From: Candidatus Bathyarchaeota archaeon
GTDB lineage: Archaea; Thermoproteota; Bathyarchaeia; 40CM-2-53-6; RBG-13-38-9
Reading direction: 5' to 3'
NCBI GenBank assembly: GCA_963807605.1
Contig: CAWECG010000001.1
Location: 384,001 to 448,000, forward strand
DNA: 64,000 nucleotides
Shown: in pieces, positions 7,420 to 64,000 of the stretch
Layout of the letters: every line of letters starts with the position of its first letter
Numbering within the stretch: the stretch's first letter is position 1
Notes under the pieces: model-generated
Database searches by the model: none
What the model was told of the DNA's origin: nothing
What the model saw: the letters and a program-made list of their open reading frames with translations, nothing else
Translations under genes and position numbers: made by a program

Positions 7420-7632
7420 GCACACACTAAATAAACGCGCTCTGCAAACGCGTTTGGCCCACCAGCGCGCGTAGGTCACTAATGCAAGTACTTGGCGCAC
7501 TCGGTCAACTTGTCGAATATGCGGTGATGAAAAGGATGGTATTGAGCCATTTTTAGGTATACATTTGTACATATCATACTTTCATACTTTAACGCTTTTA
7601 CGCCTTTTTTATCTGGATCTATAATCGTACCT

Positions 7633-7791
7633 TTAGTCTGTGAAAGGGTAGCCACAATATGGGCAATATAGTTCTTCTTTGCCTACGTCATTAGGCTTGG
7701 GTACTGTTGTTCCACCAGTCTGTGGAGCTGGTGCTGGCATCACATTCTTCTCACAGTTAGGGCAATACCTAAAATTATATGGATTTTCCAA
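7633..7791 (-). CDS. Small zinc-ribbon protein, 52 aa (not in the ORF track)
   Basis: GAGGTG SD then TTG; MENPYNFRYCPNCEKNV...LYCPYCGYPFTD. Confidence 0.65.
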   Translation of the reverse strand: MENPYNFRYCPNCEKNVMPAPAPQTGGTTVPKPNDVGKEELYCPYCGYPFTD

Positions 7792-7864
7792 AGCCCTACA
7801 CCTCTGCCTTTTTAATAGCCATTCTCAGCGGTTTCCTACGCGAGCCCTAATGTAGGAAACTTCG

Positions 7865-8116
7865 TCATTCCAAGCTCTTCTTGACCTTCTCGACATAAGT
7901 TTCATATTCTTTGACAAGTTCTTTATATGGAAAATCCCTCGGATTCCTCTTCACTGTTCGTAAGAATTTCTCTTGCACGCGAATATTCTTCTTTTGCTCT
8001 TTACGCCAAGCCTCGATCTCGCTCTGATCGAACACTACCTGACGGGCATTTTTCTTAATAGGTCTCTTAGAGTCAGAGACTGTAACAAGAAAGCTCTGAG
8101 GAAACTTCTTAGCCAT
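7865..8116 (-). CDS. Hypothetical basic protein
   Basis: 83-aa ATG ORF with protein-like composition. Confidence 0.5.
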   Translation of the reverse strand: MAKKFPQSFLVTVSDSKRPIKKNARQVVFDQSEIEAWRKEQKKNIRVQEKFLRTVKRNPRDFPYKELVKEYETYVEKVKKSLE

Positions 8117-8381
8117 ACTTCATCACTGCGTTTTCAGGTCTGCTTGAGGTTCTACTATTTGGACCCGTTCAGTATAAAATTTCAGTAGTTGTTGATTCTA
8201 CGCAGTATTTCAAGCTTCCTTCACTGATCAGGCGTGGTCAATCTTGTTGTTCGCTTTTAGGAAGAGGGTGATTGCCGTAACGAAGCCTAACCCCTTGAAT
8301 GAGCCGACGGTTAACAGCCCCAACAACCGAAAGAAAGCCGATGAATGAGCCTTCAACTTAACAGAACCTCCGTCCGCTTTG

Positions 8382-8389
8382 TTTATATA
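8382..8389 (+). promoter_or_regulatory. Putative archaeal TATA box
   Basis: TTTATATA about 50 nt upstream of the aldo/keto reductase start. Confidence 0.4.
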
Positions 8390-8437
8390 TAATACGTTGT
8401 GCTCTGAATCGAAAAGTGAGTCTAGGAAGTTATTTTT

Positions 8438-9460
8438 TTGAAAGAGAGGATTTTGGGCAGAACAAATCTCAAAGTAAGAATCATAGGCTTTGGAGGTATT
8501 CCAATTCAGAGGGTGTCTGAGCGAGAGGGTGTTAAAGTCGTTAGACGATGCTATGAGCGGGGCATCAACTACTTCGACACGGCAAGAAGGTACACTGTTA
8601 GCGAGGAAAGGGTAGGCAAAGCTCTCGAAGACGTTAGAGACAAGATTTTCCTGGCAACAAAGACTATTTGTCGAACAAAGAGTGAAGTTCTTGATGAACT
8701 TGAGATCAGTCTGAAAAACCTTAGAACAGACTGGATTGACGTCTACCAACTGCACAACGTATCTTCTGATGAGACATGGAAACAAGTGAAAGCGCCAGGC
8801 GGCGCGCTGGAAGCTCTTTACGAAGCACGTAAGAAGGATAAGATACGATTTCTAGGGGTCACGGGTCATAACCCATCAATTATGACGGAAGTTGTGAAGG
8901 AAAACATATTTGATACTGTAATGATTCCGTACAACTATCTCACGCCAACAGACGAGTTGCTCTCCCTATGCCACAAGATGAATGTGGGCACAGTTATAAT
9001 GAAAGCCTTTGGCGGAGGAGCCTTCACAAATGCCAAAGCGGCGCTGAAATTTGTTCTTAAGAATGAGAATGCTGACGTGGTAATTCCAGGCGTGATGAAT
9101 GTATCTGAAGTGGACGAGAATATCGCTGTAGCCAAGGGGCCATATGATCTATCTGCTAAAGATTTGAAAATCATAGATAAAGACAAAGCTGAGCTTGGAA
9201 ATCAGTTCTGCCACTCTTGCGATTACTGTCAGCCTTGCCAGCAGAAGATAAACATCTCCTTCGTACTGAATGCTGAAAATATGCTTAAACGTATAGGATG
9301 GACACCTATGGTCGAAGGAGGGTATCAAGAAGCCAAAACAAAGGTTCCCACCTGCATTAAATGCGGTGATTGCGAGTCTAGATGCCCATACCATCTCCCC
9401 ATCAGAGAGTTGTTGCCAGTTAGGCTGGCATACTTGCAGAAAAAACATGCCATGAAATAA
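8438..9460 (+). CDS. Aldo/keto reductase with C-terminal 4Fe-4S dicluster domain
   Basis: FDTA, LRTDWIDVYQLH; CxxCxxCxxC and CxxCxxCxxxCP. Confidence 0.93.
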   Translation: MKERILGRTNLKVRIIGFGGIPIQRVSEREGVKVVRRCYERGINYFDTARRYTVSEERVGKALEDVRDKIFLATKTICRTKSEVLDELEISLKNLRTDWIDVYQLHNVSSDETWKQVKAPGGALEALYEARKKDKIRFLGVTGHNPSIMTEVVKENIFDTVMIPYNYLTPTDELLSLCHKMNVGTVIMKAFGGGAFTNAKAALKFVLKNENADVVIPGVMNVSEVDENIAVAKGPYDLSAKDLKIIDKDKAELGNQFCHSCDYCQPCQQKINISFVLNAENMLKRIGWTPMVEGGYQEAKTKVPTCIKCGDCESRCPYHLPIRELLPVRLAYLQKKHAMK

Positions 9461-9552
9461 ATATCGTTTAGCGCGTGCGCTTTAATGATATTTTCCAAAT
9501 ATTGCCTTTGGTTACCTTACTGATTCTCAGTCGATCTTATCAAATGGTCGCA

Positions 9553-9819
9553 TCAACGTACTACCTCATCCCGTGATTCTTTTTTCTCCACAACATTTGC
9601 TCTTGAAATAACTGTTACCAATATTGTGTTCTGTAGAGGAGTAGTCACGATGTGGGCAACTTTAAAATCTCGGTTCTTTGGCTCTTTTTCAAAATCCTCT
9701 CTACTCTTGATTACTAGTCTACTAATAGCCGCATCTATAGAACTACTCAATGTCTCGCTTACCATCTTAGGTTTGATATCCACTTCTTCAGTCAAAGACA
9801 TATAATACAAATATTGCAT
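9553..9819 (-). CDS. Hypothetical protein, paralog of 55331..55564
   Basis: Shared PKM...LS.S...I and HI.TTPL...ILVTV.SR motifs. Confidence 0.7.
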   Translation of the reverse strand: MQYLYYMSLTEEVDIKPKMVSETLSSSIDAAISRLVIKSREDFEKEPKNRDFKVAHIVTTPLQNTILVTVISRANVVEKKESRDEVVR

Positions 9820-9918
9820 CTTACAACACCAACAACCTAATTGGTAGAAGCCTATTATTATGCTTCTTTAATCGCGCCTTTCTGTTTCTCGTAGAGGTCT
9901 AAGAGTTTCCGTATTATG

Positions 9919-10641
9919 TCATCGTAGGACCCGTTTTTCCTTCCGATCTCTCGATGGATCTTGCGGTTCTGTTAAGCTCGTGGAGGTTGCTTTTCGCTGT
10001 TGTGTCGGGTGCTCATGCCTGAACCTTGGGATGAATCGTGGGGTTCGTTTCATGTATTCACGATATTCGTCGCCGAACCTATCAATCAGCATAAGCTCCT
10101 CCTTACCTATCTGCGCGTAGATTATCGTGATTAGGACAAGTGCAGGCAAAAGGATAAGCCAATTAGCGGCCACAAGCGCCAAGGCCATTATGAATGTGAA
10201 GGCCCCCAAATAAATCGGATTCCTAACATAGCGGTACGGCCCGCTCGTAACCAGTGTCTCCTTCTTTCTCCGCAGGAACTTTGACGGGTCTAGGGTGTGA
10301 ACCCAATTCTTACCAAGCGTCCGATAACCCCAAAGCGTGAATGGAATGCTCAGAGCGGTTACACCGACCATGATTAACCGGAACCAATCAGGCAACGGAA
10401 TCGAGAGAAACACTATCCAACTGGGAAGTATGGCGTAGAGTATTATTCCTCCAAACCAGAAGGGAGCAAACAAGGCAAGGGCTACGATATGCAACTGTCC
10501 TTCATGTCGAGCCGTCTGGTCAATCGATGATTTACTCGTAGACTCCCTTGATGAGTATCTTATCCATGTTATGTTAGCAATGAAGATAAGCCATAGAGTA
10601 GAGAAGATAACTCTGAAAAACAGTTCATTTGTCACGTTCAC
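9919..10641 (-). CDS. Isoprenylcysteine carboxylmethyltransferase (ICMT/PEMT) family membrane protein
   Basis: LVTSGPYRYVRNPIY and EE..L..RFGDEYREY...TPRFIP. Confidence 0.9.
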   Translation of the reverse strand: MNVTNELFFRVIFSTLWLIFIANITWIRYSSRESTSKSSIDQTARHEGQLHIVALALFAPFWFGGIILYAILPSWIVFLSIPLPDWFRLIMVGVTALSIPFTLWGYRTLGKNWVHTLDPSKFLRRKKETLVTSGPYRYVRNPIYLGAFTFIMALALVAANWLILLPALVLITIIYAQIGKEELMLIDRFGDEYREYMKRTPRFIPRFRHEHPTQQRKATSTSLTEPQDPSRDRKEKRVLR

Positions 10642-10764
10642 GACCCCCCATTATCTCAACCACCATCCTTGAGTTCAACCTATCTCAACCTACGTGCTCT
10701 TGCAATCACCCGAAGATTAACAAGGATGAGCAGCACCCGTCAACTTAACGGAACCTGCCCTGCG

Positions 10765-10806
10765 GTTCTGTCAAGTCTATGTTGGACTTTCAATTCTACC
10801 ATAGAT
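10765..10806. repeat. Dispersed repeat, copy 1 (copy 2 at 17466-17507)
   Basis: ggttctgtcaagtct(a/g)tgttggactttc(a/t)attctacc(a/c)tagat is shared. Confidence 0.7.
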
Positions 10807-10924
10807 TTAGGGTGTCGGAATATTCAGACTTTACATTCAGGATGCCAATTCGCTTAGGTTTTAAAGTCTTGAATTTTAGGTTGTCTAGGGTCTAAGATTA
10901 TGAATCGTGTCCAAATTAGGATAC

Positions 10925-11077
<153 letters not shown>

Positions 11078-11100
<23 letters not shown>

Positions 11101-12319
11101 AACGTGGAGTGCGCCTTGAGTATCGATGAGGTCTTCTTTCGAAAGCGTGTCGAGTTTCATCGCTGGATCTGCTCGATCCTTCTCTCCTAGCAGTGAATGC
11201 GTCCGGGCCAGAGCTGAAGTTAAGTCGCTCAATCCGGTCGTCTGCCATCGATTGTATTGCCCGAAAGTCGACATTTTGCTCCGCGGATACTATCGTCACT
11301 GCGGTTCCCGTCTTGCCAGCTCGTCCGGTTCGACCAATCCTGTGGAAGTAAGTATACGGATTCTCAGGAACGTCATAGTTGATAATGTGTGTAACTCCGT
11401 CAATATCCAAGCCTCTTCCGGCCAGGTCAGTGGCAACCAGTATACGACTCTGACCGCTTCGAAATGCCTTCATTGCTCTATCGCGTTGATGTTGGGTAAG
11501 GTCACCGTTTAGTGCTATGGCGTCTTGATTTCTTCTCCCGAGTGATTGGTTCAGCCAGAATGTGCTGCGTTTGGTTCGACAGAAAACTATGGCACGTTGT
11601 ACTTCTTTGTCCTGCAGGATTCTTAAGAGCGCATCAAGTTTTCTTTCATGATCCACTTGGCAGTAGTATTGGCTAATCTGCTTGACATTGAGATCCTCCG
11701 GTTCGATCAGGACTTCGCGAGGGTTCTTCATATGCCTACGGGCAAGTTTCAGTACTTCCTTGGGCATCGTAGCGGAGAAGAACGCGATTTGACGTTTACT
11801 CCTAGTCTTAGTTAGAATATGCTCAACGTCATCAATGAAACCCATGTCCAGCAACCTGTCAGCCTCATCCAGAACAACACACTGGACTTTTTCAAGGTGA
11901 AGGGATCCACGTTCTATATGGTCGATGACTCGTCCCGGTGTTCCAACTATGATCTGCGGGCAATCTTCTAAGGCGCGTATTTGCACATTAATTGATTGGC
12001 CACCATAGATTGCAAGAGCGTGCTTGCGAGTGAATCTGCCATACGAGTTGATATCGCTGGCTACTTGCACTGCAAGCTCGCGTGTCGGAACGAGCACCAG
12101 CGCCTGAATGTTCAGGTTCTTTTCGTCAACGATCTCCAAGAGCGGTAGGCCGAAGGCAGCGGTCTTTCCAGTTCCGGTATGTGCTTGACCAATGACATCG
12201 CTTCCGTGCCGCAGAAGCGGAATAATTGCTTCTTGGATCGGAAACTGTCTCTCGAATCCAAGTGCCTTGATAGCGTCCAATATTTCTGAGCTTAAGCCCA
12301 GTTTCTCGAAATTACTCAT
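11078..12319 (-). CDS. DEAD-box RNA helicase (DeaD/CshA-like)
   Basis: Q motif, GTGKT, PTRELA, DEAD, SAT, HRIGRTGR. Confidence 0.96.
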
Positions 12320-12950
12320 TGATTATCTCTCCTTATCCTCCATTAACGTCGCAGGTCTGAAATGAAGGCCGAAAACTGATTCCATCTCGGTCTTTGACCC
12401 ATTGTGGAAACGAGACTTCGGTTGTTTCCTCGGACTTCCGCGACTTCGGTCAGTTGCAACAAGAAGAAGAATATGCGGGCAATCGTTGTAAATGACTCGC
12501 GTCTCTCGTTCTCGACAACTAACTTCGTGTATTCTCGCCGTCGTTCTATATAAGGATAGAAAGACAAGTTTCGTGAGTAATCTTAGTTAGAAGATGAAAT
12601 CGTCTATCTTCTCAGCAACAGGAAATAGTACATCAGTTAACAGAATAATGTTCCACGGCACACTGTTTCCCGAATAGCTACCTGTTATTAAAGGAAAAAA
12701 GCCACGTTGGACTTGATGATGCGGACTGGCTGGTGTGACTCATGGAACCTGTCTGACCGGGCCTCCCCTTCTTATGTGTCAGTGATAAGAGTGTTTAGAG
12801 TATGAAACACATATTGGATCTTTTGATTTGATGGCACCTACAATTCGCAGCTTTTGCTCCTATTGTTCGGCACTGATGGATCCAACGAATCCTCGATAGC
12901 GGTTGCGGAACAGGGATCTTCATTGAACAGGTGGCAGGCAAAGTCGAGTT

Positions 12951-13139
12951 CGTCGTCGTCGCCATAGCTGGTGAGCACACACACGAAATCAATACCAAGC
13001 GGTTCAATTCTAGATGCTCTCACCAACTAAGATGGGATATAGATAACTGGCTGTTTTGTGTGGTCACGTGGATGCTGTTTTTTTGACGTGAACATCCACA
13101 TAGACATTTCTAGGAAGAAATTGGGTTTAGCGCGCGCAA
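12951..13139. repeat. Modular REP-like element with a GGGATAT...GACATTTCTA module, ending in TAGCGCGCGC
   Basis: (cgt)3-tagctggtgagcacacacac...cggttcaat...gctctcacca; the tail matches 37140-37243. Confidence 0.85.
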
Positions 13140-13150
13140 AAACAGATGCT

Positions 13151-14251
13151 TCAGACAGTCCCCCAGGTGTGCTCGCAGTTGCAATAGCTTTTGCCGAAGT
13201 CATCGTTGCTTACCCTGCGAGTGCCGCTCTTGAATTCGAAATCCGTGACCCTTGCAGGGTACTCGTTGTACAATATTCCATGCCAAATCGGTCCTATGAG
13301 GGGTTGCGATATGTTCCAGCAGCACCTTGCATAGGTTGCCATCTCTATGCTGAGCTCGCCTTCATCGGAGAATGCGTTCACACTGAATATCGGCAGGTCA
13401 TTCTCGTAACGTTTAGTCATTCTAACATCCTCCATGAAATATTCCTTCCCCTCCTCAGGGTCGTAAAAGTTGAGAGTCTTTGAAACTATCTTTTCCCCCC
13501 AGTCCATCAGGCTTTTGTGTGATGTTGAGCGCCTGAGCATTGGTATTCCGATATGCGGCAGGAAGTACTGCAGGTAAGCACCATTATCCCACTGTACTGT
13601 ACCCCAGTACCAGCAGGGGGTTATCGAGGCTATCCGTACTTTCTGGAAATAAGACCTGCCCTTTACGGGAGTCTCGGTTTCGCCTACTCGGATTTTTCCA
13701 GATGACAAGAGCGCCCTGTATTTCAGCATAGAATACCCCATGTTTCCGATGAAGTTCTTTCCTGTTGGCATCAGTTCCGCCATCGTGTCTTTCCACCACT
13801 GCATCGATAGTTCGATTCCAACGTTCTCATTGTTTATGTCCAGCCAGAAATCCGCAGGGCTCCCACCGAAGGAATAGACGCCCTCATCGCTTTCCATTCT
13901 GATTCGTCCAGAGTGGTCATCCCACTCGGTTTCAGTCTTCCCGTGGTCGAGGACAAAAGGGTCATGCATCTTATCTCCGTCATAATACCAGGAGGCGACA
14001 ACTGATTCGAAAGCAGTGCGGTTTTCCTTGTTCTCCATTGGGATTCTTGGCTCCCAGTAAAAATCGTTCACACGAACCTTTCTGCAGTTCCTGGTGGCCC
14101 AAAGGACCATGAGCTGCCTGGGGTGTTCTTGGTTGTCTGGGTTTTCGAAAAAATAAATCCACCACCACCAGTGCCAAGTGCGGTTCCTAAGCATGTTTTC
14201 GGGATAAATCTTCCATATGTCATTGAAGACCTTATGCATGCGTAATCGCAA
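13151..14251 (-). CDS. Hypothetical protein, possibly AttH/CrtC/tocopherol-cyclase-like beta fold
   Basis: 366 aa; WWWW.YF, QLM.L, G.SYFQKV, WYWG pattern. Confidence 0.7.
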   Translation of the reverse strand: MRLRMHKVFNDIWKIYPENMLRNRTWHWWWWIYFFENPDNQEHPRQLMVLWATRNCRKVRVNDFYWEPRIPMENKENRTAFESVVASWYYDGDKMHDPFVLDHGKTETEWDDHSGRIRMESDEGVYSFGGSPADFWLDINNENVGIELSMQWWKDTMAELMPTGKNFIGNMGYSMLKYRALLSSGKIRVGETETPVKGRSYFQKVRIASITPCWYWGTVQWDNGAYLQYFLPHIGIPMLRRSTSHKSLMDWGEKIVSKTLNFYDPEEGKEYFMEDVRMTKRYENDLPIFSVNAFSDEGELSIEMATYARCCWNISQPLIGPIWHGILYNEYPARVTDFEFKSGTRRVSNDDFGKSYCNCEHTWGTV

Positions 14252-14628
14252 ATCATATAGCTTCCACTTGCACTAGACATTTTCCCCTTGCACAACGCTC
14301 GCGCTACACCACTTGATCACAACTTCATACTGCGCTAAACATAACACCCGTAGTCATGACTGTCATAGGACTATGAGCTGGTTACAATGCTACGCGCACG
14401 CGAAAAGAAGAGGATGCAACCATAAGCATCGACATTGATTTAGACGAGTTGATGAATTCAGTTAACGATGACCTATCGCTCAACCCGATGAGAACATTTG
14501 TTTTCTTACTGGAATCTGCTGGAAGCATAAAAGGCATCTAGAATATGCTAAGATTATTTACCGCATCATCAATCGAGCTTGGCCACACGTATCTGAAAAG
14601 GTGAAATAAATGACAGTGTGATAAACTG

Positions 14629-15681
14629 ATGATTCACCAATTCCACAAAAAGATATGGAAGGTCGGAGAAACCTATTCTCTGATTAGGAAACTTTCATGT
14701 ATAGACGGCTCAAACTTGGATGCGCCGGTCTTAGATAGAGTATTGTATAATGCTGAAACGCTGCCTCCTCTAGGAAAGGAATATTGGTGGCTTCACTTCA
14801 TCGGTCGCGATGGAGAGAGACCGATGCAGTTTATGTTACTGATATTCAGGAAACATGGAAGAAGGGTGCGGTTCAACGATAGGGAGATGGCGCTTAGGGA
14901 GTTAAAAGAAAACAAGTTTCAAGCAGTTACCGCTGGCTGGGTATATAATGGAGGCAAGCTTAGCGACTTAGGAGATACGAATGCCGTTACAGAGGTGGAT
15001 TCTGAAAGAAAGACGATAGTTTCAACTATTTCAGGGCGAAAAATGATGCTTAACGGCAGTTTTCCAAGTTATAGACTAAATGTGGATAACACCATTTACG
15101 TAGACATCGGTGAGTTAAATGGCATTGCGGACAAGGACGCCCACGGCGTCTTTATACCACCATTTGGCGTGGGTTGGGTGGATGTGTTTCTGGAAGCTCA
15201 AGGTTCTGTGCTGGGAAAACGATTCAGAGGGATAGCCCACTTACAGAAGGTCGTTGGGGTTACAACGTTCGGCTCCTTTCATTGGGGGAGAATAGTCTTT
15301 CAGAGGGGTTTTTCAATTTCGTTTTTCTGCCTAAAAGCTGGGAAGGATTCAAAGAGATATTTTCATAGATACATGAATTTTCAGGATTGTAAGAATAATA
15401 TGATTATCGAATTTGAGGATCCAAAACTGCAAATACAGAAGAAGGATGATGGAAAGCAATGGATTATTGAAGGATATGATGATGATAAAGAAGTTAGGAT
15501 AGTCTTGGCAAGTTATGCGAAGAAACGTTATATCATGAAGGGCGGAGGTTCACAAGTTTACATCGAGTATGCGGTTATAACTGAGGAATTTGATCTGGAA
15601 ACTGAAAATGAAGTTATCAGTTTAGACGATTTAGGGAAGGGCGTGGGGACATTTGAAGATGCATACGGTTCACCAATTTGA
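14629..15681 (+). CDS. Hypothetical protein, distant paralog of 13151..14251
   Basis: 350 aa; EYWW.HF, QFM.L, G.AHLQKV, FHWG pattern. Confidence 0.7.
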   Translation: MIHQFHKKIWKVGETYSLIRKLSCIDGSNLDAPVLDRVLYNAETLPPLGKEYWWLHFIGRDGERPMQFMLLIFRKHGRRVRFNDREMALRELKENKFQAVTAGWVYNGGKLSDLGDTNAVTEVDSERKTIVSTISGRKMMLNGSFPSYRLNVDNTIYVDIGELNGIADKDAHGVFIPPFGVGWVDVFLEAQGSVLGKRFRGIAHLQKVVGVTTFGSFHWGRIVFQRGFSISFFCLKAGKDSKRYFHRYMNFQDCKNNMIIEFEDPKLQIQKKDDGKQWIIEGYDDDKEVRIVLASYAKKRYIMKGGGSQVYIEYAVITEEFDLETENEVISLDDLGKGVGTFEDAYGSPI

Positions 15682-15779
15682 AAGAGTGTAAAATTTGTCT
15701 AAAGAACCACGCACGTAACTGGTCAAGAGAAATTCACGCGCTCAATCTAGGAGCAAGCCATACCCTTGTCTAGGAGCTT

Positions 15780-16001
15780 TCAAGCAACAGCATTCCCAAT
15801 TGAATATCGATGTTTCAACCATAGGCGTCTTTCGCGTGGAAGTATGTAGTACCGGGCCCTCTCTCCAGATCCTTCACGTTGAACCATGCATTCAAAGCCC
15901 CTTAACGTCAAACCTATCGTTTTATTCGACGCGCTCGAATACGTGTCACCGAACGCCTCGAGACACTTTCTTACATCATGTATCTTGAACGGTTGCTTTA
16001 C
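15780..16001 (-). pseudogene. Possible C-terminal gene fragment beginning at the TAGCGCGCGC motif
   Basis: Protein-like open frame (KQPFKIHDVRKCLE...RYYILP) with the motif at 16002-16013. Confidence 0.3.
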
Positions 16002-16106
16002 TAGCGCGCGCTTGTTGGTTTTCGTGCGGGGTCTGTCGTTGGAAGTCTTTCGGAACAAACTGGTTCGGTGGCCCTGTGAGTTCAATCAAATCCCCTGCGA
16101 GTCCCG

Positions 16107-16222
16107 GTGTGTGTGCTCACCAAGGGATACTCCCAACATGAGGTGGTGGATAATAGTGTCGTCGTCACTCACCAGCTAGGCACACACACAAATCATAATC
16201 TAATGGCTCGCTACCCTCGCCA
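16107..16222. repeat. Modular REP-like element
   Basis: gtgtgtgctcaccaagggatac...gtcgtcgtcactcaccagctaggcacacacac...ggctcgctaccctcgcc. Confidence 0.8.
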
Positions 16223-16350
16223 GCCATCTTACCCTTCTCCTAACATCACAAACAATTCTGACTGTCACATGTCAAATCAGACCGTAAGGATTTGCCGAGC
16301 ACATCTAGGGATTGAACTTCGATTTAGTTTAGGGCATAACTCATCGAAGC

Positions 16351-17408
16351 TTAACCAAGATCCTTTACGTATTGTGTGATTCTCCCGTCCAGAATTGCGA
16401 AGTGAGTCTCGTCAATCTTGCCTTTCTTGAGCATCTGAAGGACGTCATCCTTCATATGTCCAAGTTGACTCTTACACTCCTCACGATTCGAAGCATATTC
16501 ATTGTATGTAGAGTCAATCTTTGTCATATAGCTCGAAAGGAAACGCCGCTTTCGCGTCTTAAACAACCATCCTAAAACTACCGACCCTCCTGTCCCAGCT
16601 GCACCTAGGATCTGCTGTAGAGTGTTGAGCGGTATGAGGCCGCCGAGGACTCCTGGGGTTGTTTGACTACTCTCCGCTGCTTGGGTTGTTTGACTGCTCT
16701 CCGCTCCTGAGATGCTTGTTGTTTGGCGACGAGTTTCCAAGAAAAGTTGTTGTGAGATTGACCAACCGCTGAGAAGGTTACGTAGGCACGCCCGTCCTGC
16801 GTACTGATCTGGGGGGCGCTAGATGGCGAAGAAGTAACCGTAGCAGCGGAATATTCCACTGGAAGCCATAAATGATAGGTCTCCGGATGCGGCCCAGGAA
16901 ACAGCCTCTGCACATGAGTCCATTCCGCTTCGAGTTGATCGCCCACTATCCTTGGCATTTCTGAGTCAAGCCACTTTACGTAAAAAGCGAACCCATCCGA
17001 TTTGTTTCCGCCGAATGAAATCGAAAGAATGGTAGCCGTCTGATTCTTTACAATTCGGAAGTTCAGCGTTTGATTTGTGTCAGCAGCATAAGCTTGAACA
17101 TTATCTACTGCAGTGAAAGAAGGAAAGTTGAATTTCCAACCACTCCCGAAATTTGGTAGCTGTCGATCATATGGTGAATGATGAATTGTCACTCTAACTG
17201 TAATCCAAGTCTGTGTTCTTGAAAAGTCGAAAACCCAATCATACTCAGCCGGGCAGTTGCTTGATTGTGCATTAACGGAGGGAATCAGCATCAAACCCGC
17301 ACAAACAACGACAAGCAAAATGCACTTGTAACGAGAGACACCTCTGCTAAAAGCGCACAAGCCCAAAGACCTGAGAGGGTAAATCACACATTCCCAGTTT
17401 ATGAACAT
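16351..17408 (-). pseudogene. Secreted/membrane protein split by a frameshift near 16720
   Basis: Signal peptide and beta-rich domain (16605..17408) continue into an S/T linker, TM helix and helical tail (16351..16740); one A is missing from an A-run. Confidence 0.7.
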
Positions 17409-20465: not shown

Positions 20466-20477
20466 GGAGGTGCCATT

Positions 20478-20723: not shown

Positions 20724-20734
20724 AAGGGATACGC

Positions 20735-55014: not shown

Positions 55015-55330
55015 TTCTGTTACACATTATTTCAGGCAATAAGTAAGTCGGGCATCTATCTTCAGCACTATCTCTTGCTAAGAGCACCCAGAATTGAACT
55101 ATTAGATTGTGATTTTTACGCGCGCGCTGACCGACACATGGATTATTGTCCCCACTGTAACAGGTATCAATGGCATCATGTCTAGGACAATAAAGCTCAC
55201 GCTAATAGGTCCAACCTTGCCCACAATGGGAGCAAATTAGATGGACCGCCAAATCAGAAACCTTAACGCATCTCAGTGTACTAACACGCGCTCACTTCGA
55301 ACCTCTGCTATCGACACGAGTCTTTCAAAA

Positions 55331-55564
55331 TCAGTCTTCTATTCTTCCTCTTGAGACGACCGTAACGAGTATCTTGTCGTTTAAGGGAGTAGTGATTATG
55401 TGAGTGACTTCGACGTGTCTTTTTTCAACAGGCTTTTTGAGTTCTTCTAGATTCCTCAGCATCAGTTTCTCAATTGATTTGTTGACAGAGTTACTCAGGA
55501 AGTCATCTTTCATTTTAGGCCCATACGGAACCACTTCAGACGCACAAGAGTAGTACCAGTTCAA
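55331..55564 (-). CDS. Hypothetical protein, paralog of 9553..9819
   Basis: HIITTPLNDKILVTVVSR. Confidence 0.7.
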   Translation of the reverse strand: MNWYYSCASEVVPYGPKMKDDFLSNSVNKSIEKLMLRNLEELKKPVEKRHVEVTHIITTPLNDKILVTVVSRGRIED

Positions 55565-55995
55565 TATGCTTTCACCTTGCCGTTATTACTCCTATGATGT
55601 TAGATAACCGTTTTCTGGTTACGCACGCGTAGTCCAAGAATTATCTCGTCACACATAATTTTTGGGCTTTTGACAGAATAGCGCGCGCTTTATTGATTTT
55701 TGATGGTTTTTATTCTTCTCTGAGCATGTTTGGGCAGATGTGTGGGCGGCAGTCTCCTCTCTTTATTTTGCAGAATCCATCTTTGCTGTGCTTGCATATC
55801 TGTTTGAGCCTTGTGAAGGTTCAGGGTGACAAGACTTGTGTGAGGTTCTTTGAGCGTGAGATTGACATGTCGCCTGAGTTTTGGGGTCAAATTGTAGCTG
55901 TATTTCGGTCTGCCACATCTATTTTCGACCTTTTCTGCTCTTTGAACTAGTGCCCCAAGCTACTCGCGACAGCCAAACCGTGATTTTCAGAGTGT

Positions 55996-56973
55996 TCATG
56001 TCGCAAGTACGACGGCCAACTTAAGTAGGTTTAGATCCAAAGCCTTCTCGATCTCACATGATTTCTGAAGCTCGAGGCTTCCAATCCTGCCATTTTGCAG
56101 TCCCACTACTTTGTCGCCCTCCTCGTCTGACAACATCTCGACTGCTTTTTCTGCGAACAAGCTCGCCAAGAGCCGGCTCCTTACTGTGGGGCTGCCGCCT
56201 CTTTGGGCATAGCCTATGATGCTCAGTCTAACCTCTGCCTTTGTGTTTCGCTGGATTTGTCTTGCAAGCAGACGGGTGTCTCCTATTCCTTCTGCCGCCA
56301 CAACTAGGCCTGACTTTTTTCCTTTGGCCATGTTTTCTCTTATGGTCTTGAATACGTTCGCCTTTTGACATTTCACTTCTGGAACTAGAATTATTTCCGC
56401 ACCAACGGTGAGTCCCACGGCTAATGCAAGAAAACCCCTTTCTCGCCCCATCACCTCAATCATGAATACTCTCTCATGAGAAACTGCCGTGTCTCGGATC
56501 TTATCGATCTCAGTGACTGCTGTGTTTGCAGCCGTGTCAAAACCTATGGTTTCCTCTGTGCCAAAAACATCGTTGTCGATTGATGCTGGAATTCCGACCA
56601 TCATGGTATCCGTGTATGCGCCTAGCTCCAGAGCACCCTTAAAGGACCCGTTGCCGCCGATTACCACTAGTCCGCCAACATGATTCGATGCTAGAGTTTC
56701 CGCAGCTTTCCTGATTCCTTCTCTCTTCTTGAACTCGGGACACCTTGATGTATGCAGGATTGTACCGCCTAGCTGTAGAATACCGCCTACGGATCGAGGT
56801 GTCAAAGCTGTAAACGTATTTGTAATCAAGCCTTCCCACCCTCTCCTGAAACCTAGAACTTGAAGCTTCTTTGAACAGGCGATGCGGACAACGCCTCGGA
56901 TGGCAGCATTCATGCCAGGCGCATCTCCGCCAGCTGTGACTAGGGCTATCCTCTTCAACAGGCCTTTCCCCAA
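55996..56973 (-). CDS. pfkA: 6-phosphofructokinase, bacterial PfkA type
   Basis: GGDAPGMNAA, GGT.L..SR, GGNGS, IDND, EVMGR. Confidence 0.93.
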   Translation of the reverse strand: MGKGLLKRIALVTAGGDAPGMNAAIRGVVRIACSKKLQVLGFRRGWEGLITNTFTALTPRSVGGILQLGGTILHTSRCPEFKKREGIRKAAETLASNHVGGLVVIGGNGSFKGALELGAYTDTMMVGIPASIDNDVFGTEETIGFDTAANTAVTEIDKIRDTAVSHERVFMIEVMGRERGFLALAVGLTVGAEIILVPEVKCQKANVFKTIRENMAKGKKSGLVVAAEGIGDTRLLARQIQRNTKAEVRLSIIGYAQRGGSPTVRSRLLASLFAEKAVEMLSDEEGDKVVGLQNGRIGSLELQKSCEIEKALDLNLLKLAVVLAT

Positions 56974-57164
56974 TTTGAGCTAGCGCGCGCCAGCTTCTTG
57001 ATAAACTCTTTCGTTTGACATGAAGATGTATACGAGCTCTCCATGCTATGAAGATACGGAAAGACGAGTATTAAAAGCCATTTTTAGCCATTTTTGCAAG
57101 AGACCCGCGCGCTAGCTGCGTGTCCAAACAGAGTTATCTATGAAGGATCATAAATTATGTAAGA

Positions 57165-58970
57165 GTGTTCGTTACAATGAGTGTTGAATCTAATGACCTG
57201 ACTGTCAGGGATCCCATCTGTGGCATGGTAGTCGATCCCAAGAAAACAGAATTCAAAGCCACGGTTAGAGGCAGACAGCACTATTTTTGCAGCGAATATT
57301 GCATGCGAAGTTTTCTCGAAGGACCTGAGATCGCATACTTCTCCATGGAAATCGGCATAAGAAGCGAGATCCCGACATATAGTGGCGGATTGGGCGTCCT
57401 AGCAGGAGACACCGTGCGCTCCAGCGCAGATTTGAGGATTCCACTTGTAGCTATTACACTCGTCAGCCGCAAAGGATACTTAAAGCAGAAAATAACGCAG
57501 ATGGGAGAACAGCTCGAGTATCCAGACGAATGGAACCCGTCAGATTTCATGAAACTAGAGCCAACAACCACAAAAGTGAAAATTGAAGGCAGAGACGTAG
57601 AGATTGGAGCTTGGATCTACAGTTATCAAAGTCTCACTAAGAGTGTTGTACCAATACTGTTTCTTGACACCGATCTTCCTAGCAATACGCAGGAGGACAG
57701 AGACATCACCAGTTTTCTCTACGGAGGCGACGAAAGGTACAGATTGAAACAAGAGATCGTTCTAGGAATTGGAGGCGCAAGGATCCTTGAAGTACTAGGT
57801 TTCAACATCAGAAAGTATCATATGAATGAAGGCCACTCAAGCCTTCTCATTCTCGAGTTACTGAAAAGGAACGAAATGGACCCCAACAAGGTCCGAGACC
57901 TCTGTGTCTTCACTACACATACTCCTGTTGCTGCTGCATTTGACAAATTCTCTTACGATCTCATCCAAGAATTGGTGGGCGACTATGTTCCGCTGGAGAT
58001 TGTGAAGAAATATGGTGGACAGGATGCGTTGAATATGACGCTCTTGGCAATAAATCTGAGTAAACACATCAACGGCGTGACGACGGCACACATGCAGTAT
58101 TCTGAAAAACTCTTTCCTGGACATCATATGAGGGCAGTAACCAACGGTGTGCATTCGTACACTTGGACTTGCCAGTATTTCAGGGACCTCTTCAACAAGC
58201 ATATCCCTGGCTGGGCTATTGAACCAGACCTGCTCGTCCGGGTAGACGAGATCCCGAGCGAAGACGTGTGGGACGCCCATATGAAAGCTAAGAACGATCT
58301 AATTGATTTCATAAAAGAGAGAACAAACATCAAGATGGATCCCGACGCCCTGACAATAGGCTTCGCCAGAAGGGCTACAGCTTACAAGAGATCCAACCTG
58401 ATCTTCTCAGACTTAGAAAAATTGAGAAGGGCAAATAAGACTGGACCCTTGCAACTGGTTCTCGCTGGAAAATCGCATCCACTAGACTACTCTGGCAAGA
58501 GCATAATCAGAGAGATCTATGATGACATATCTCGGTTGAGGGATGAGATGAAGATTGTTTATCTTGAAGATTATAACATGGCGATGGCCGCAAAATTGAC
58601 TTCTGGTTCAGATGTCTGGCTGAACACGCCCTTGCCACCGTTTGAGGCATCTGGAACAAGTGGAATGAAGGCTGCACACAACGGTGTCCCAAACTTCAGC
58701 GTTTTAGATGGATGGTGGGTAGAGGGTTGCATAGAGGGAGTTACAGGCTGGTCGATAGGCTCCCCATATGATATGCCCATCAGCGAGGATGAAAGGAGGA
58801 GCTTGGAGTTGGAAGATCTCTATGACAAACTGAGGTACCTCGTCATCCCTACCTTCTACAAGAAAAGAGACCAATGGGTAGCCATAATGAAGAGCTCTAT
58901 AGGAAAAGTAGCATACTACTTTAACAGTCACCGGATGATGAGGAGATACATTACAGAAGCCTATCTATAG
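57165..58970 (+). CDS. glgP: Alpha-glucan phosphorylase with an N-terminal YHS domain
   Basis: DPICGM...YFCS..C; YSGGLG.LAGD, NEGH, EASGTSGMK. Confidence 0.93.
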   Translation: MFVTMSVESNDLTVRDPICGMVVDPKKTEFKATVRGRQHYFCSEYCMRSFLEGPEIAYFSMEIGIRSEIPTYSGGLGVLAGDTVRSSADLRIPLVAITLVSRKGYLKQKITQMGEQLEYPDEWNPSDFMKLEPTTTKVKIEGRDVEIGAWIYSYQSLTKSVVPILFLDTDLPSNTQEDRDITSFLYGGDERYRLKQEIVLGIGGARILEVLGFNIRKYHMNEGHSSLLILELLKRNEMDPNKVRDLCVFTTHTPVAAAFDKFSYDLIQELVGDYVPLEIVKKYGGQDALNMTLLAINLSKHINGVTTAHMQYSEKLFPGHHMRAVTNGVHSYTWTCQYFRDLFNKHIPGWAIEPDLLVRVDEIPSEDVWDAHMKAKNDLIDFIKERTNIKMDPDALTIGFARRATAYKRSNLIFSDLEKLRRANKTGPLQLVLAGKSHPLDYSGKSIIREIYDDISRLRDEMKIVYLEDYNMAMAAKLTSGSDVWLNTPLPPFEASGTSGMKAAHNGVPNFSVLDGWWVEGCIEGVTGWSIGSPYDMPISEDERRSLELEDLYDKLRYLVIPTFYKKRDQWVAIMKSSIGKVAYYFNSHRMMRRYITEAYL

Positions 58971-59046
58971 ATACCTCGATTAATGGCGAGAATTTTTTCG
59001 AAGGAACTAACGTACTGGTGACTGTCATCATCATCTGCATGAGGGC

Positions 59047-59301
59047 TACAGCCCTCTCTGCTCTTTTTCAGATCCTCTCAGGCAAAAGAATTGATTTTTG
59101 AGCCCATGTCTTCAGTTACTGGGTATCCTGGGCAGATGCAGTCTATTTCTTTTGTAAAACAGGTTGGACTCTTGCTCAAAGCATAGAACAGTAGTTCCTT
59201 CTTTTCTCGGGCAGAATCAGTATGTTGGACATTCGGGGCACATACAAACCTCTTTCTTAGACTCCGAGTTTTGATCTCTCTTTTTCACTCGTTTTTGTCA
59301 T
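59047..59301 (-). pseudogene. DUF2769-like Cys-rich protein, multiply frameshifted
   Basis: CMCPECPTY / KELLF / CICPG.PVT / FFCLRGSEKEQR pieces in different frames. Confidence 0.65.
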
Positions 59302-59644
59302 TTGCTTCACAACTTCATCAAATCTGTTCATAAAATGCTCACTTCATGTTGAGAAGGAGAGAAATTTGTTTGACCACGATAGCGTTTACACCATATTCAT
59401 TTTCGCCTAAAAGAGTATTGTCTCTGCCACAATTCTGGGAACAATCGATGATTAAGTATGCCGTCGACGCCTTGACACTTTCATTTCTATCTATGTTGCC
59501 GCAATCATTAACGGCATGATTGTCATTAAAGCTTAAGGTCGTTAGTCGAATGGATCTGAATCCGTTATCTGTATATTTGGACGGCCCACCTATACCTAAT
59601 GTTCACTCGCACACTCATGGAGCGACCAGAGAGAGGTATGTCAA

Positions 59645-61051
59645 CTGACTTTAGAGTCATTCTTCAAACCTAGGTCTGTAGCGGTAGTAGGTGCTTCGAG
59701 AGAGCCAAGGAAGTTCGGCCACGTCATCTTCAAGAATTTCATCGAGTCGGAATTTAATGGTAAGACATATCCAGTGAATCCAAAAGCAGAGAACATACTG
59801 GGCCTAAAAACATATCCCAGCATAAGAGAGATTCCTGACCAAGTAGATCTAGCGATAATCGCAGTCCCAGCGTCAATAGTTCCCCCGATAATTGATGACT
59901 GTTTGACTAAAGGTGTTAAGGCAGGCGTAATAATCTCCGGAGGATTCGGAGAGATCGGCGAGAGAGGAAAATTGCTTGAACTCGAGATTGAGAGGAAAAT
60001 CAAGGGTAAGAACCTTAGAATCATCGGACCAAATTGTCTAGGAGTATATTGTCCGGTAAACCACATAGACACACTGTTCATGCCCAGATACAGATTGAAG
60101 CGCCCTAAAGAAGGCCCTATAGCCTTCATATCACAGAGTGGCGCTTTCGGGTCCGCGGTCCTCGACTGGGCAGCGTCACAAGACATCGGCATCAGCAAAT
60201 TCGTCAGCATAGGAAACAAGATCGATGTGGATGAGATCGATCTGCTGAACTATCTGGCCGATGACCCTATCACCAAATGCATCGCAGTCTACTTAGAGAG
60301 CATAAATCGAGGACGAGAGTTTCTTAGCGCCTCCACCAAAGTGGTCAAAAACAAACCGGTTGTAGTCCTAAAAGGCGGTGTAACACAAGAGGGTGCTAAC
60401 GCTGCCCTTTCTCACACGGGATCGATTGCAGGATCCGCGAAGATATGTGAAGGTGCATTCAAGCAAACTGGTGTAATACAGGCACAAACAGTGGACGAAC
60501 TATTTGATTATGCTCGGGTTCTAGCTTACCAACCGATCCCCAATGATCAGAGGGATATCGCGATAGTAACTAATGGAGGAGGATTCGGCGTCATAAGTGC
60601 TGATGCCGTTTCAAAACTCGGCTTGAAACTGGCAAAGTTCAGCTCAGATACTATAACACGATTGAAAGAAAGGCTACCCGACTATGCCATCCCGCATAAT
60701 CCGTTAGACCTTGTAGGCGACGCGGACGTAGAGCGCTACCGAACATCACTTAACGCTGTCTTCTCAGATCCAGGTGTTGGAATAGTTTTGGTTATCGTCC
60801 TTCTTCAGACATCATTCATCGAATCCGACGTCGTAGATGCCATAAGTGAGTCTCAAGTAACCTATGGCAAACCCACAATCGTCTGTACCGTGGGAGGGGA
60901 CTTCACTCAGATACTGGTCAAGATGCTGGAGGACAATAAAATACCATCATACACGACTCCTGAGAGGGCCGTTAGCGCAGTGAACGCTCTCACGCAGTAT
61001 AGCAGAACCGTTGAAAACATGAATAAGGAAAAGGAAATCGAAGATAATTGA
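59645..61051 (+). CDS. acdA: ADP-forming acyl-CoA synthetase alpha subunit (CTG start inferred)
   Basis: FFKPRSVAVVGAS upstream in frame; GPNCLG, SQSG, SHTG, NPLD. Confidence 0.9.
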   Translation: MTLESFFKPRSVAVVGASREPRKFGHVIFKNFIESEFNGKTYPVNPKAENILGLKTYPSIREIPDQVDLAIIAVPASIVPPIIDDCLTKGVKAGVIISGGFGEIGERGKLLELEIERKIKGKNLRIIGPNCLGVYCPVNHIDTLFMPRYRLKRPKEGPIAFISQSGAFGSAVLDWAASQDIGISKFVSIGNKIDVDEIDLLNYLADDPITKCIAVYLESINRGREFLSASTKVVKNKPVVVLKGGVTQEGANAALSHTGSIAGSAKICEGAFKQTGVIQAQTVDELFDYARVLAYQPIPNDQRDIAIVTNGGGFGVISADAVSKLGLKLAKFSSDTITRLKERLPDYAIPHNPLDLVGDADVERYRTSLNAVFSDPGVGIVLVIVLLQTSFIESDVVDAISESQVTYGKPTIVCTVGGDFTQILVKMLEDNKIPSYTTPERAVSAVNALTQYSRTVENMNKEKEIEDN

Positions 61052-61222
61052 ATTATTGGAATAATGTTAATTGCACCGCAATCTGCAAGAATTTTCAAAA
61101 AAGGTCTTGGTTCAAAACGAAGGCTGTCCTCTCAATTTTTGCGAAAGAGAAGGGACTAAAGTCTATTTATATCATAACAACCATTTACCAGTCGACAAAC
61201 AATATTTCTCTGTTGGCTGATC

Positions 61223-62143
61223 ATGCTTGTCACGAATAGAGACCTGCTGATACCCGCTATGAAGAGGTCTTATGCAGTTGGGGCTTTCAATATCAGCAAT
61301 CTAGAAAACCTATCAGCAGTTACCCAAGCCGCAGTTGAGGAGAGATCACCTGCGATAATCGCAGTGACACCCTCCTCAATAGAATATGCGGGCTTAGCCT
61401 ACGTAGAGAAGACGGTCAAGACAGCAGCAGAATCTGTCGCTGTCCCTCTGTCACTACACCTTGACCACGGCAAGGACATACAGACCGTTTTGAAGTGTAT
61501 AGATTCTGGATTTACGTCAGTCATGATTGACGGCTCCCATCTAAAGTTCGAGGAGAACGTGGCTCTAGCAAGGCACGTAGTCGACATAGCTCATCCGAAG
61601 GACATCTCGGTTGAAGCAGAGCTTGGAAGGATAGAAAGCATAGAGGAATCAACAGCTGAGGAAAGAAAGGTCATCCTGACAGACCCTGACGCCGCTGAGA
61701 GTTTTGTTGAGCAGACCGGTATTGATGCGCTAGCAGTCGCTATAGGAACATCCCACGGAGCCTACAAATTCAAAGACGAACCGAGACTTGATCTTGAAAG
61801 ACTACGAATCATTCGTGAAAGAGTATCAATCCCACTGGTCCTTCATGGCGCTTCAGGCGTTCCATCATGGGTTATCGAAAAAGCCAACAAGTACGGTGCT
61901 GACCTGAGCAGAGTGAAAGGCATACCGGAAGAAGAGATCAGAAACGCGATTTCCATAGGGATATCTAAAATAAACATCGATACAGATCTACGCCTAGCCT
62001 TCACGGCGGGTCTACGAGAAGTGCTAGCTAACTCGCCCAGAGAATTTGACCCTAGGAAAATACTCGGTCCAGCCCGTACACTCATGGAGGAAGTTGTCAA
62101 GGACAAAATGCATCTATTCGGAAGTTCCGGAAAGGCTACATGA
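61223..62143 (+). CDS. fba: Class II fructose-bisphosphate aldolase
   Basis: HLDHG, VMIDGS, EAELG, GTSHG.YK, LHGASG, KINIDTD. Confidence 0.94.
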   Translation: MLVTNRDLLIPAMKRSYAVGAFNISNLENLSAVTQAAVEERSPAIIAVTPSSIEYAGLAYVEKTVKTAAESVAVPLSLHLDHGKDIQTVLKCIDSGFTSVMIDGSHLKFEENVALARHVVDIAHPKDISVEAELGRIESIEESTAEERKVILTDPDAAESFVEQTGIDALAVAIGTSHGAYKFKDEPRLDLERLRIIRERVSIPLVLHGASGVPSWVIEKANKYGADLSRVKGIPEEEIRNAISIGISKINIDTDLRLAFTAGLREVLANSPREFDPRKILGPARTLMEEVVKDKMHLFGSSGKAT

Positions 62144-62166
62144 AGAAGCGCAGTGAAACTACAATC

Positions 62167-63612
62167 CTATCTTGGCACGCTACGCCTTCCCAATAGTTTG
62201 AGAGCGATGTTCTTCCCTTGTTCTAGGTTTTCTCTCAGCCTCCGCTTGTCAGCGGATTCCCCATAGACTCTGAGGAGCGGTTCCGTCCCTGAAGGACGAA
62301 TAAGCAACCATCCTCCGTCTTCCAAAAGCAGTTTTATCCCATCCATCCTATTTACACTCGAGACCTTGGTATCACCGACTTTGTCTGGAATTCCTGAAGA
62401 CAACTCTTCCATAACGACCTTCTTCAGGTTGTCCGGACAGGGAACATCGTCACGCCCGCTGACACATGGACCGTATTCGGACATTAACTCGCTAAAGATT
62501 TTCGTAAGAGACTTCCCAGTTTTGGCCCTCAATTCGGTTGTCTTGATACACGTGAAGATTCCGTCTTTTTCAGAGATATGACCCTTAAAGCTCATGCCCC
62601 CGCTCTCCTCCGCCCCTATGAGAACGTCTTTCTCACGCAGATACTGTCCAACATACTTGAAACCTACTGGGACCTCGTACACAGGCAACCCATGTCTCTC
62701 AGCGATCCTGTCCACAAGATGAGTCGTAGCCACTGTACGCACGACGCCACCATGACCGCCGTCCTTTATCAAATAGTCAAACAACATGGGGAATAATTGA
62801 TCCGCTGACAGATAGGTGCAGTCGCTGTCGTATACAGCCAGACGGTCAGCGTCACCATCTGTCGCCAAACCAAGATCCGCCCTAACGCTCCTCACTCTAG
62901 ATCTTAGTTCGGTTAGAAACTCCGGGAGGGGTTCTGGACGCCCTCCTCCGAAGCTTGGATCAGGGTCATCGTGAATCATCGTTACTCTACAGCCAGCATC
63001 GCGTAAGATGCTGTCAAGGTAGCGTCTACCTGTTCCGTACATTGGGTCATAGACGATTTTCAATCTCGCCTTCTTCATCGACTCCAAGTCTATCTGGTTT
63101 TCAACGAATTCAATGTAAGACGTCAAGGGATCAATCGATTTAAGAAGACCCTCTACGATGCCTTTCTCTATAGAGGACTCCTTTATCGCCTTACCGCCGA
63201 AAACTCGACTTATGTTTCTGGTTATCTCTTCGGTGATATCTGGCAATGCTGGGCCAGCATATTCGGGAATGAACTTGATGCCGTTCCACTCCGGCGGATT
63301 ATGTGAGGCAGTTATCATCACACCCCCACCCGCCTTCTTCTGAAATACCTCCAAAGCTGTCACTGGCGTAGGGGTATCTCTTTCAGTGATGCAGGTCAGG
63401 ATCTTGTTGCCTAGCATTACCCTGCACGTGGCTTCTGCGAAATCGCGCGATCTCTTCCTTGTGTCGTATCCAACAATGATTCCTCTACCGTCGAGCTCAT
63501 TCTCCTTCATGTAATCTGCGATTGCCTGGGCAACAACTTTCACGTTGTTAATCGTGAAATCCGTACCGATGATTCCACGCCAACCATCGGTGCCGAACGT
63601 AATACTGGTCAA
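62167..63612 (-). CDS. Phosphoglucomutase/phosphomannomutase
   Basis: FGTDG.RG, TASHNP, DGDADR, RPSGTEP. Confidence 0.95.
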   Translation of the reverse strand: MTSITFGTDGWRGIIGTDFTINNVKVVAQAIADYMKENELDGRGIIVGYDTRKRSRDFAEATCRVMLGNKILTCITERDTPTPVTALEVFQKKAGGGVMITASHNPPEWNGIKFIPEYAGPALPDITEEITRNISRVFGGKAIKESSIEKGIVEGLLKSIDPLTSYIEFVENQIDLESMKKARLKIVYDPMYGTGRRYLDSILRDAGCRVTMIHDDPDPSFGGGRPEPLPEFLTELRSRVRSVRADLGLATDGDADRLAVYDSDCTYLSADQLFPMLFDYLIKDGGHGGVVRTVATTHLVDRIAERHGLPVYEVPVGFKYVGQYLREKDVLIGAEESGGMSFKGHISEKDGIFTCIKTTELRAKTGKSLTKIFSELMSEYGPCVSGRDDVPCPDNLKKVVMEELSSGIPDKVGDTKVSSVNRMDGIKLLLEDGGWLLIRPSGTEPLLRVYGESADKRRLRENLEQGKNIALKLLGRRSVPR

Positions 63613-64000
63613 GTGAGCTCACTGTTCTTGGCGCGTGCTAAAATATCCCGTCCATTAAGATATAGGGTTGAGGCTTCAGACTTGCCATATTCTGTAGAGT
63701 TGATAGATGCTAAGGAAAAGGATAGGCTGTGCCTTACTGCAAGAGGTTACTCTATTGAAAGCCCAAGATGTTAGATTCTCGAGTCCTGCAAGAGAAGATA
63801 GTGATTGGGATTATGCTAGAAACAAACGGGTTTTCTTAAGAAAGGGATTGCTTGAGTGGAGCTGCTCAGTCTTCTCTTCATCAGTTAAGCTCTGGGACAT
63901 GAGTCTTGTTGGCCCCAACAGAGACTCCCCATATGAGGGACTAACCTACTGCCTGAATCAAACTTCGTATAGGTTTCTTGACGGTCTGCTATTTTCCCGC

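Follow-up and report, generated by a model that had tools for sequence, protein, structure and literature searches.

Palindromic scars at gene-module borders in a Bathyarchaeia genome and a candidate primase-RNA system for writing them

What places the same short palindrome at the borders of otherwise unrelated genes? The question is raised by a stretch of 64,000 nucleotides from a Bathyarchaeia genome (G000, 2.65 Mb in 5 contigs), in which an initial annotation had noticed a 12-bp quasi-palindrome between most gene modules and had taken it for a candidate recombination or joining site. The window, as we call the whole stretch, is C1:384001-448000 of this genome. Among named sequences, the closest to a gene of the window came from a Bathyarchaeia metagenome-assembled genome. 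We found that the motif is new DNA, written during joining, and not a pre-existing site. Comparison of genomes points to its writer: a stand-alone archaeo-eukaryotic primase (AEP) with its own template RNA would tail DNA ends in a telomerase-like manner and the tails would then anneal, leaving the palindrome as an end-joining scar. We give this reading a probability of about 0.8. The window as a whole (1..64000) is a scar-dense mosaic, and the proposed enzyme and RNAs lie outside it.

A motif that arises at joints

The 13 exact copies of GCGCGCGC that the initial annotation had placed in the window were all found where it put them, a regular-expression count giving 14 through an overlap at 35201/35203, and its variants lay within a few bases of the positions given for them. 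The over-representation that it described was also confirmed. At no more than one mismatch, WAGCGCGCGCTW occurred 14 times in the window against 0.25 ± 0.44 in shuffled sequences, and GCGCGCGC was the most over-represented 8-mer genome-wide (298 copies against 57 under an order-4 Markov model). Counted without overlap, GCGCGCGC was present 269 times in the genome, clustered in some regions and missing from others. The actual unit was (A/C)GCGCGCGC(T/G), with an outer W that was mostly derived from the parent DNA; beyond 12 bp, neither a conserved sequence nor a two-arm site structure was found around it. Scars of four GC units were commonest (100), followed by three (44) and five (5), and the half-sites were of the TAGC (152), ACGC (98), TCGC (25), TGGC (15) and ATGC (10) types. 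Of the 301 Bathyarchaeia genomes sampled, 33, which belong to seven families, contained at least 30 copies of the motif, counting the GC-type scar alone. One genome of family f9 (G052) contained 40 exact 12-mers against 0-2 in six congeners, at a contamination of 7%, which suggests that it gained the system, or else scarred DNA, laterally.

The interiors of long open reading frames (ORFs) make up 60% of the genome and held just 5 of the 269 copies. Exact copies had been said to lie outside intact genes; the one at 18936 cuts two genes. A spacing of about 10 bp from a start or stop was not general, since distances below 20 bp made up 2 of the 244 measured to starts and 19 of the 256 measured to stops. 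The density of the motif per 10 kb was 3.9 between convergent, 2.9 between tandem and 2.6 between divergent gene pairs. A transcription-factor site, one of the alternatives that had been named along with the motif, was rejected on the missing positional peak at starts and on the high density between convergent genes. The other, an assembly chimera, was rejected because the motif was present in independent metagenomes with different junctions, in aged variants and with a lineage-specific sequence.

The ends of intragenomic repeats were found to accumulate at the motif. Of 83 traced flanks, 64 had homologs without the motif in register, and 59 were left, a few of them doubtful, after the ends of insertion sequences (IS) and shifted copies were dropped. 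At about 55 junctions of the genome the parent was 80-100% identical and did not contain the motif. One continuous parent gave both flanks at C3:74807, judged against a paralog in the window near 25389, and at C1:353531; in each, 5-6 bases were swapped for the motif. Compared with related Joint Genome Institute (JGI) contigs, the motif patches a 90-bp deletion in this genome and a 195-bp deletion in L055. Because the parents lack the motif, and because it also patches simple deletions, it was newly added at the joints. A Cas1-like duplication of a pre-existing target was rejected, as the continuous parents gain the motif together with a small deletion. The claim that the motif marks junctions of rearrangement or capture was upheld, synteny with a related JGI contig ending exactly at 9469 and 23422; public contigs matching window positions 30001-50000 came from distant strains only. 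In 30 of 38 AGC-type halves (p about 5e-5), the A belongs to the parent or the parent stops at a T immediately preceding the A; such a non-random last parent base is as expected of priming on a template.

An RNA that predicts the scar and a primase-like enzyme

A conserved element of about 100 nucleotides overlaps nearly every AEP gene with an intact 3' end. Two copies were found in the genome and none inside the window. The first (C3:72274-72375) lies over the 3' end of the intact AEP gene and contains the segment GAGCGCGUA, which predicts ACGC-type half-sites; the second (C1:380246-380349, minus strand) lies 3.7 kb left of the window, and its segment ends in CGCGCUAAG, which predicts TAGC-type half-sites. 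The reverse complements of these segments begin with TACGCGC and CTTAGCGCG, respectively, which are the two half-site types that prevail in the genome. From 5' to 3', the element begins with a helix strand and a UGA box, followed by a hairpin whose length varies and by a RUGA box; the variable single-stranded segment comes next, and then an A-run and a long stem, the loop of which pairs back with the 5' strand as a pseudoknot. In 35 sequences, 91% of the cells pair, and 17 of the 21 pairs, the pseudoknot included, change on both sides. The covariation was not reached in any of 500 shuffles or in any slid control, the latter favourable by construction, as the structure was read from the same 35 sequences. 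The G-U substitutions fit the RNA sense strand, whose reverse complement is the scar with the right polarity. Box C/D-like RNAs have CUGA and RUGAUGA boxes that form K-turns bound by L7Ae; in the present element, UGA and GAUGA motifs show little or no variation. Ten loci gave no match in Rfam 15 at E values up to 1; a hammerhead ribozyme was rejected, the core being a misfit by eye and without an Rfam hit.

Nine types of RNA segment occur, and comparison across 68 loci and 11 genomes has shown that the segment predicts the scar type. In the 68 loci, which were de-duplicated and in which the gene and the RNA were masked before scars were counted, the prediction fitted 101 of 225 motifs, whereas 20,000 permutations gave a mean of 40.5 and a maximum of 85. 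Loci with UAGCUA contained 9.1 copies of TAGCTAGC per 10 kb, and those with UGCAU contained 11.8 of ATGCATGC. A quick tree required 15 or more changes of the segment and had the GATC type nested within a GCGCUA clade. A genome with the GATC-type RNA (G308) contained 344 copies of GATCGATCGA against 0-9 in four other genomes. In 1.6 Mb of G308, 21 of 194 GATCGATCGA-type runs were found in ORF interiors (61% cover), the parent lacked the run in 12 of 14 traceable flanks, and the first base was in register in 9 of these 12. The ratio of ATGC to TAGC half-sites was 51:8 in G309 (ACGCAU) and 22:86, 30:163 and 20:210 in G310-312 (GCGCUA). In five more genomes, four of them from one genus, the direction was predicted beforehand from the RNA and held in all (69:23, 159:37, 69:17, 32:6 and 16:213). 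The RNA model matched 15 of the 39 motif-rich genomes and gave one spurious match among 80 motif-poor ones. Five repeat units were seen (GC, GATC, TGCA, AGCT and GGCC); all are self-complementary and therefore suit joining. The number of repeat units in the scars exceeds that in the RNA segment.

The intact AEP gene of the genome lies outside the window at C3:72234-73127 on the minus strand (L072:10238-11128) and encodes 297 amino acids, whereas the AEP gene beside RNA copy 2 is broken, with an N-terminal piece at C1:381158-381334. The family is stand-alone and of patchy occurrence, with a size of about 265 amino acids (members about 265-297). In 47 homologs the DxD motif, SGxxGFH (motif II, SGxxGxH) and the third aspartate (motif III) were invariant or nearly so, and D96, D98, S148, F153, H154 and D205 were invariant. 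The AlphaFold model (pLDDT 87) gave archaeal PriS as its best Foldseek match (E 2e-11, TM about 0.5), so that the protein is predicted to belong to the AEP superfamily, with a PriS-like fold and intact catalytic motifs. It resembles the replicative PriS of archaea in fold, in catalytic motifs and in its top Foldseek and NCBIfam matches. It is unlike PriS, which is universal and single-copy, in being shorter, stand-alone and patchy, and it lies far below the curated cut-offs (49 bits against the replicative PriS family, cut-off 143.5); a separate strong match to that family was found in the same genome at C3:1004710. The named loci with close homologs were all from Bathyarchaeia. GCGCGCGC occurred 2.6 times per 10 kb around loci of the AEP family against 0.4 around distant primases, and the distant short AEPs (L102-L107) were without such an RNA. 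Among the ORFs adjoining the AEP gene, no Ku, ligase or phosphoesterase was apparent; no genome-wide Ku search was made.

Other writers were considered. A reverse transcriptase was rejected, since RVT_1 had no match in the genome and such genes were present in 2 of 61 genomes searched. The initial annotation had proposed a search for a co-occurring recombinase or methyltransferase. Five genes of the tyrosine-recombinase family were indeed found in the genome, but were dropped as writers since the parents proved motif-free, and the best candidate is a polymerase with a template RNA.

Copies of the AEP gene are mostly on short contigs, scar-flanked and often broken. At L241 (G308 C2:413285), L243, L234, L240 and L142, remnants of the AEP and the RNA are interrupted by the repeat type that belongs to them, so that the genes of the system are themselves scarred by it. 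One AEP clade (G212 [L195:10215-10718, L226, L239], G156, G166 and G228) has no RNA at the 3' end; the RNA stands alone there instead, in as many as six copies per genome, within a common upstream sequence.

Scars and mobile elements in the window

Both parents were traced for two scars of the window, with the motif in neither. At 23422..23433, homology to L055 ends on the left and homology to C1:375217 begins on the right, and at 39925..39936 the parents are C1:137547 on the left and C1:91770 on the right. Right-flank parents without the motif were found for the scars at 16002..16013 (C1:141001) and 24484..24495, and for a scar of mixed type at 55118..55129 (C3:498219). Another mixed-type scar, at 18936..18947, lies where the 3' portion of a gene for an ABC binding protein meets the 5' portion of a gene unrelated to it; the matching of four paralogs of the left piece ends here, and the closest paralog continues without the motif. 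The left flank of the scar at 13128..13139 is a repeated segment that elsewhere bears the motif with other right flanks. The scar at 32623..32634 marks the end of a repeat element tipped with (CA)n, and a repeated segment starts at the exact motif of 55679..55690. An aged scar at 9469..9480 follows an aldo-keto reductase gene, and homology to L055, which lacks the motif, stops exactly here. The copies at 7463, 37233 and 38944 are older ones, spanned by homologous DNA of relatives or paralogs. The longer alternating run at 35199..35212, the exact motif at 51900..51911 and the exact core at 53117..53128 are taken as scars by analogy, their parents not having been traced.

The core genes tbp and RPA had been described as bordered by the motif. 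The borders are there, but the block that they enclose is an additional copy, 92% identical to C1:135777-137547. An aged scar at 38098..38109 forms its left end, where homology to C2:45869 begins, and the older scar at 38944..38955 is spanned by the RPA/tbp copies at C1:136365 and C2:46504, the former with the same motif. Since the block (38156-39925 in the window) is present in three copies, the others at C1:135777 and C2:45869, and since further tbp-adjacent fragments exist, core transcription genes are undergoing duplication or capture.

The split scar at 56981..57116 contains a miniature inverted-repeat transposable element (MITE) of about 115 bp, of an IS family that targets the scars; its ends match the IS terminal repeats, and the copies at 56981 and 57105 are the half-motifs on its two sides. 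Two IS1182/IS5-like families were found in the genome (C4:41596-42732 plus six others; C3:458357 plus six others), an assignment that scores below the NCBIfam cut-offs, and the first of them, which was scanned, contained DUF772 and DDE_Tnp_1. All 14 full-length copies, seven per family, occupy the motif, intact or degenerate, mostly at its centre and with a 4-bp duplication. Both families have an element-specific, unequal terminal base and insertions only in the scar; they have apparently adapted to scars as safe sites. The flanks vary between identical copies, the motif is already present at sites that contain no insertion, and the distribution does not track motif abundance, the IS being present in G012 and G008, which are poor in the motif, but not found in G003, G004 and G007, which are rich in it. 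For these reasons the two families are secondary users of the scars and not their makers.

Other repeats were also observed. MITE-like repeats with ends GTGTGTGCTCACCA and (CA)n of variable length were found in the window at 10937-10972, 12966-12983 and 16107-16190 and near 24520, 26710, 32600, 37100 and 42340, (CA)n being the most enriched 10- and 12-mer of the genome. The window also contains a DDE transposase at 30560-31453 (DDE_Tnp_1_5, DDE_Tnp_1), with an ORF of equal length and the same termini at C3:768210, and ORFs at 25774-26316 and 29914-30480 that look C-terminally truncated, with no exact motif at the break. A repeat family of about 1.39 kb (82-97% identity, more than 15 copies, at C4:493255-719920, C1:99449, C3:2861 and elsewhere) is probably another mobile element. 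A repeat of about 30 bp with GTATCCGTATTCG, in about 25 copies across the genome, is possibly a CRISPR array or a coding repeat.

Proposed mechanism, alternatives and known systems

In the mechanism that we propose, the RNA would be expressed and would form a ribonucleoprotein with the AEP. A broken end, arising from damage, restriction or incoming DNA, would offer a free 3' end that forms one or a few base pairs with the single-stranded template, and the AEP would reverse-transcribe the template onto it. Repeats would be added by an A-B-A' realignment or by fold-back of the palindromic tail. The resulting tail would be a short self-complementary unit, GC in this genome and GATC, TGCA, AGCT or GGCC in other lineages. 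Two tailed ends would then anneal, and host enzymes would fill and ligate them. A palindrome would be left where unrelated DNAs meet or where a deletion was closed, and the accessory genome would in time become a mosaic. The system probably represents a DNA-repair ribonucleoprotein of a new class, namely a telomerase-like reverse transcriptase of primase fold with a reprogrammable RNA template that puts self-complementary tails on any DNA end.

Several results weigh against this mechanism. No RNA match was found in 24 of the 39 motif-rich genomes, the single-contig G179 among them, and loss, divergence or another enzyme must therefore be assumed. G130, G162, G164 and G239 contain AEP pieces but few GC-type scars, and G031 gave just 5 hits of its predicted type. 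Loci with a CGCAU template carry more ATGCATGC than ATGCGCGC, mixed with TGCA scars. The two RNAs of the genome leave the TCGC (25) and TGGC (15) half-sites unexplained; the minor half-sites need other RNA variants, some of which were found in G001 and G122. The paralogs served as proxies for the true parents, and the loci and genomes are related, so that the p-values are overstated.

The closest alternative keeps the AEP and RNA as makers of tails but gives them a role in defence or self-mobility, in which the ends of an invader are capped or poisoned, as in defence-associated reverse transcriptase (DRT) systems, and chromosomal scars are a by-product. The patchy, scar-flanked and often broken copies on short contigs would suit it, as would DRT10, which makes tandem repeats for defence (10.1101/2025.10.16.682844). 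The chemistry would be the same and the purpose alone would differ, but all five units are self-complementary, as suits joining, PADLOC gave no match, and no homolog was found in viral contigs with the patterns used. We regard this role as unlikely. That the RNA segment guides an unrecognised recombinase to existing sites, in the manner of a bridge RNA, rather than serving as template, would agree with its complementarity to the site and with the common mixed half-site combinations; we judge it very unlikely, as the parents have no site, the linked protein is a polymerase and the scars exceed the segment in repeat units.

The IS families could instead leave the scars as footprints or by aberrant strand transfer, with the link to the AEP and RNA incidental. 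Their residence in the motif in all 14 copies speaks for this, but they insert into motifs that already exist, as the differing flanks and the empty sites indicate, and were not found in three motif-rich genomes. A 4-bp stagger cannot make both half-sites on foreign DNA, and the (GATC)n, (TAGC)n and (TGCA)n scars that track the RNA would stay unexplained, which makes this origin highly improbable. A pre-existing site for a recombinase of the HIP1, pdif or attC kind, which the initial annotation favoured, or else a methylation-driven repeat or transcription-factor site, would fit the strong over-representation, the intergenic location and the five tyrosine-recombinase-family genes. It is contradicted by the motif-free parents, by the plain flanks beyond 12 bp, by the lack of a peak at starts and by a sequence that switches with the RNA between lineages, and we find it scarcely credible.

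The proposed tailing by AEP and template RNA, if true, would mean that RNA-templated repeat addition arose independently on a primase fold, outside the reverse transcriptases. It would provide a mechanism for archaeal double-strand-break joining, the repair routes for which were still called unclear in 2025 (PMC12019639), through homology-independent end joining and gene capture. It would also account for the mosaic character of the accessory genomes in a lineage abundant in sediments. Each scar would mark a past joint and name its RNA variant, making rearrangement and capture readable from sequence, and an enzyme of about 270 amino acids with a 100-nucleotide RNA that writes chosen sticky ends would be a compact tool.

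No account of the motif or system was found in a literature search that covered journals other than subscription ones, and the AEP and template RNA system is probably previously undescribed. Sites of the HIP1, pdif and attC kind exist before any exchange, and HIP1 is common within genes. They share with the scars a short iterated palindrome or site at module borders, whereas the motif described here avoids genes and arises at the joint, without being in both parents beforehand. The IS1182/IS5-like elements with palindromic targets, of which two related transposase families target the motif centre here with a 4-bp duplication, only use the scar and are not its source. Telomerase has a dedicated structured RNA that holds a short template, a reverse-transcriptase catalytic protein and short tandem repeats as products. 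To judge from genomic covariation, the present RNA would likewise be a structured RNA with a short, variable, single-stranded template for short tandem repeats. Its templates fit the A-B-A' pattern (e.g., UA-GC-UA and CCG-G-CCG), and A-B-A' realignment was shown for DRT10, a bacterial system of reverse transcriptase and noncoding RNA (10.1101/2025.10.16.682844). The present system differs from telomerase and DRT10 in that its enzyme has the fold of a PriS-type AEP and not that of a reverse transcriptase, that priming is apparently on arbitrary DNA ends instead of a protein or telomere, and that the units are palindromic and are left inside the chromosome as joints. With LigD PolDom of non-homologous end joining, which was among the structural matches of the AEP, with the microhomology-mediated end joining of Saccharolobus PriSL (PMC12019639), and with AgaPP (PMC11724360) and IEE (10.1101/2023.06.07.543989), it would share an AEP-fold polymerase at DNA ends and very short pairing that promotes joining. 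These enzymes use microhomology already in the ends, or terminal transfer, and the abstracts on PriSL, AgaPP and IEE mention no RNA partner or fixed programmable linker. Because the enzyme is not a reverse transcriptase, and because these abstracts on AEP end-joiners mention no RNA, the AEP-RNA system combines the template logic of telomerase and DRT10 with a PolDom- or PriSL-like action at breaks and is a member of neither family.

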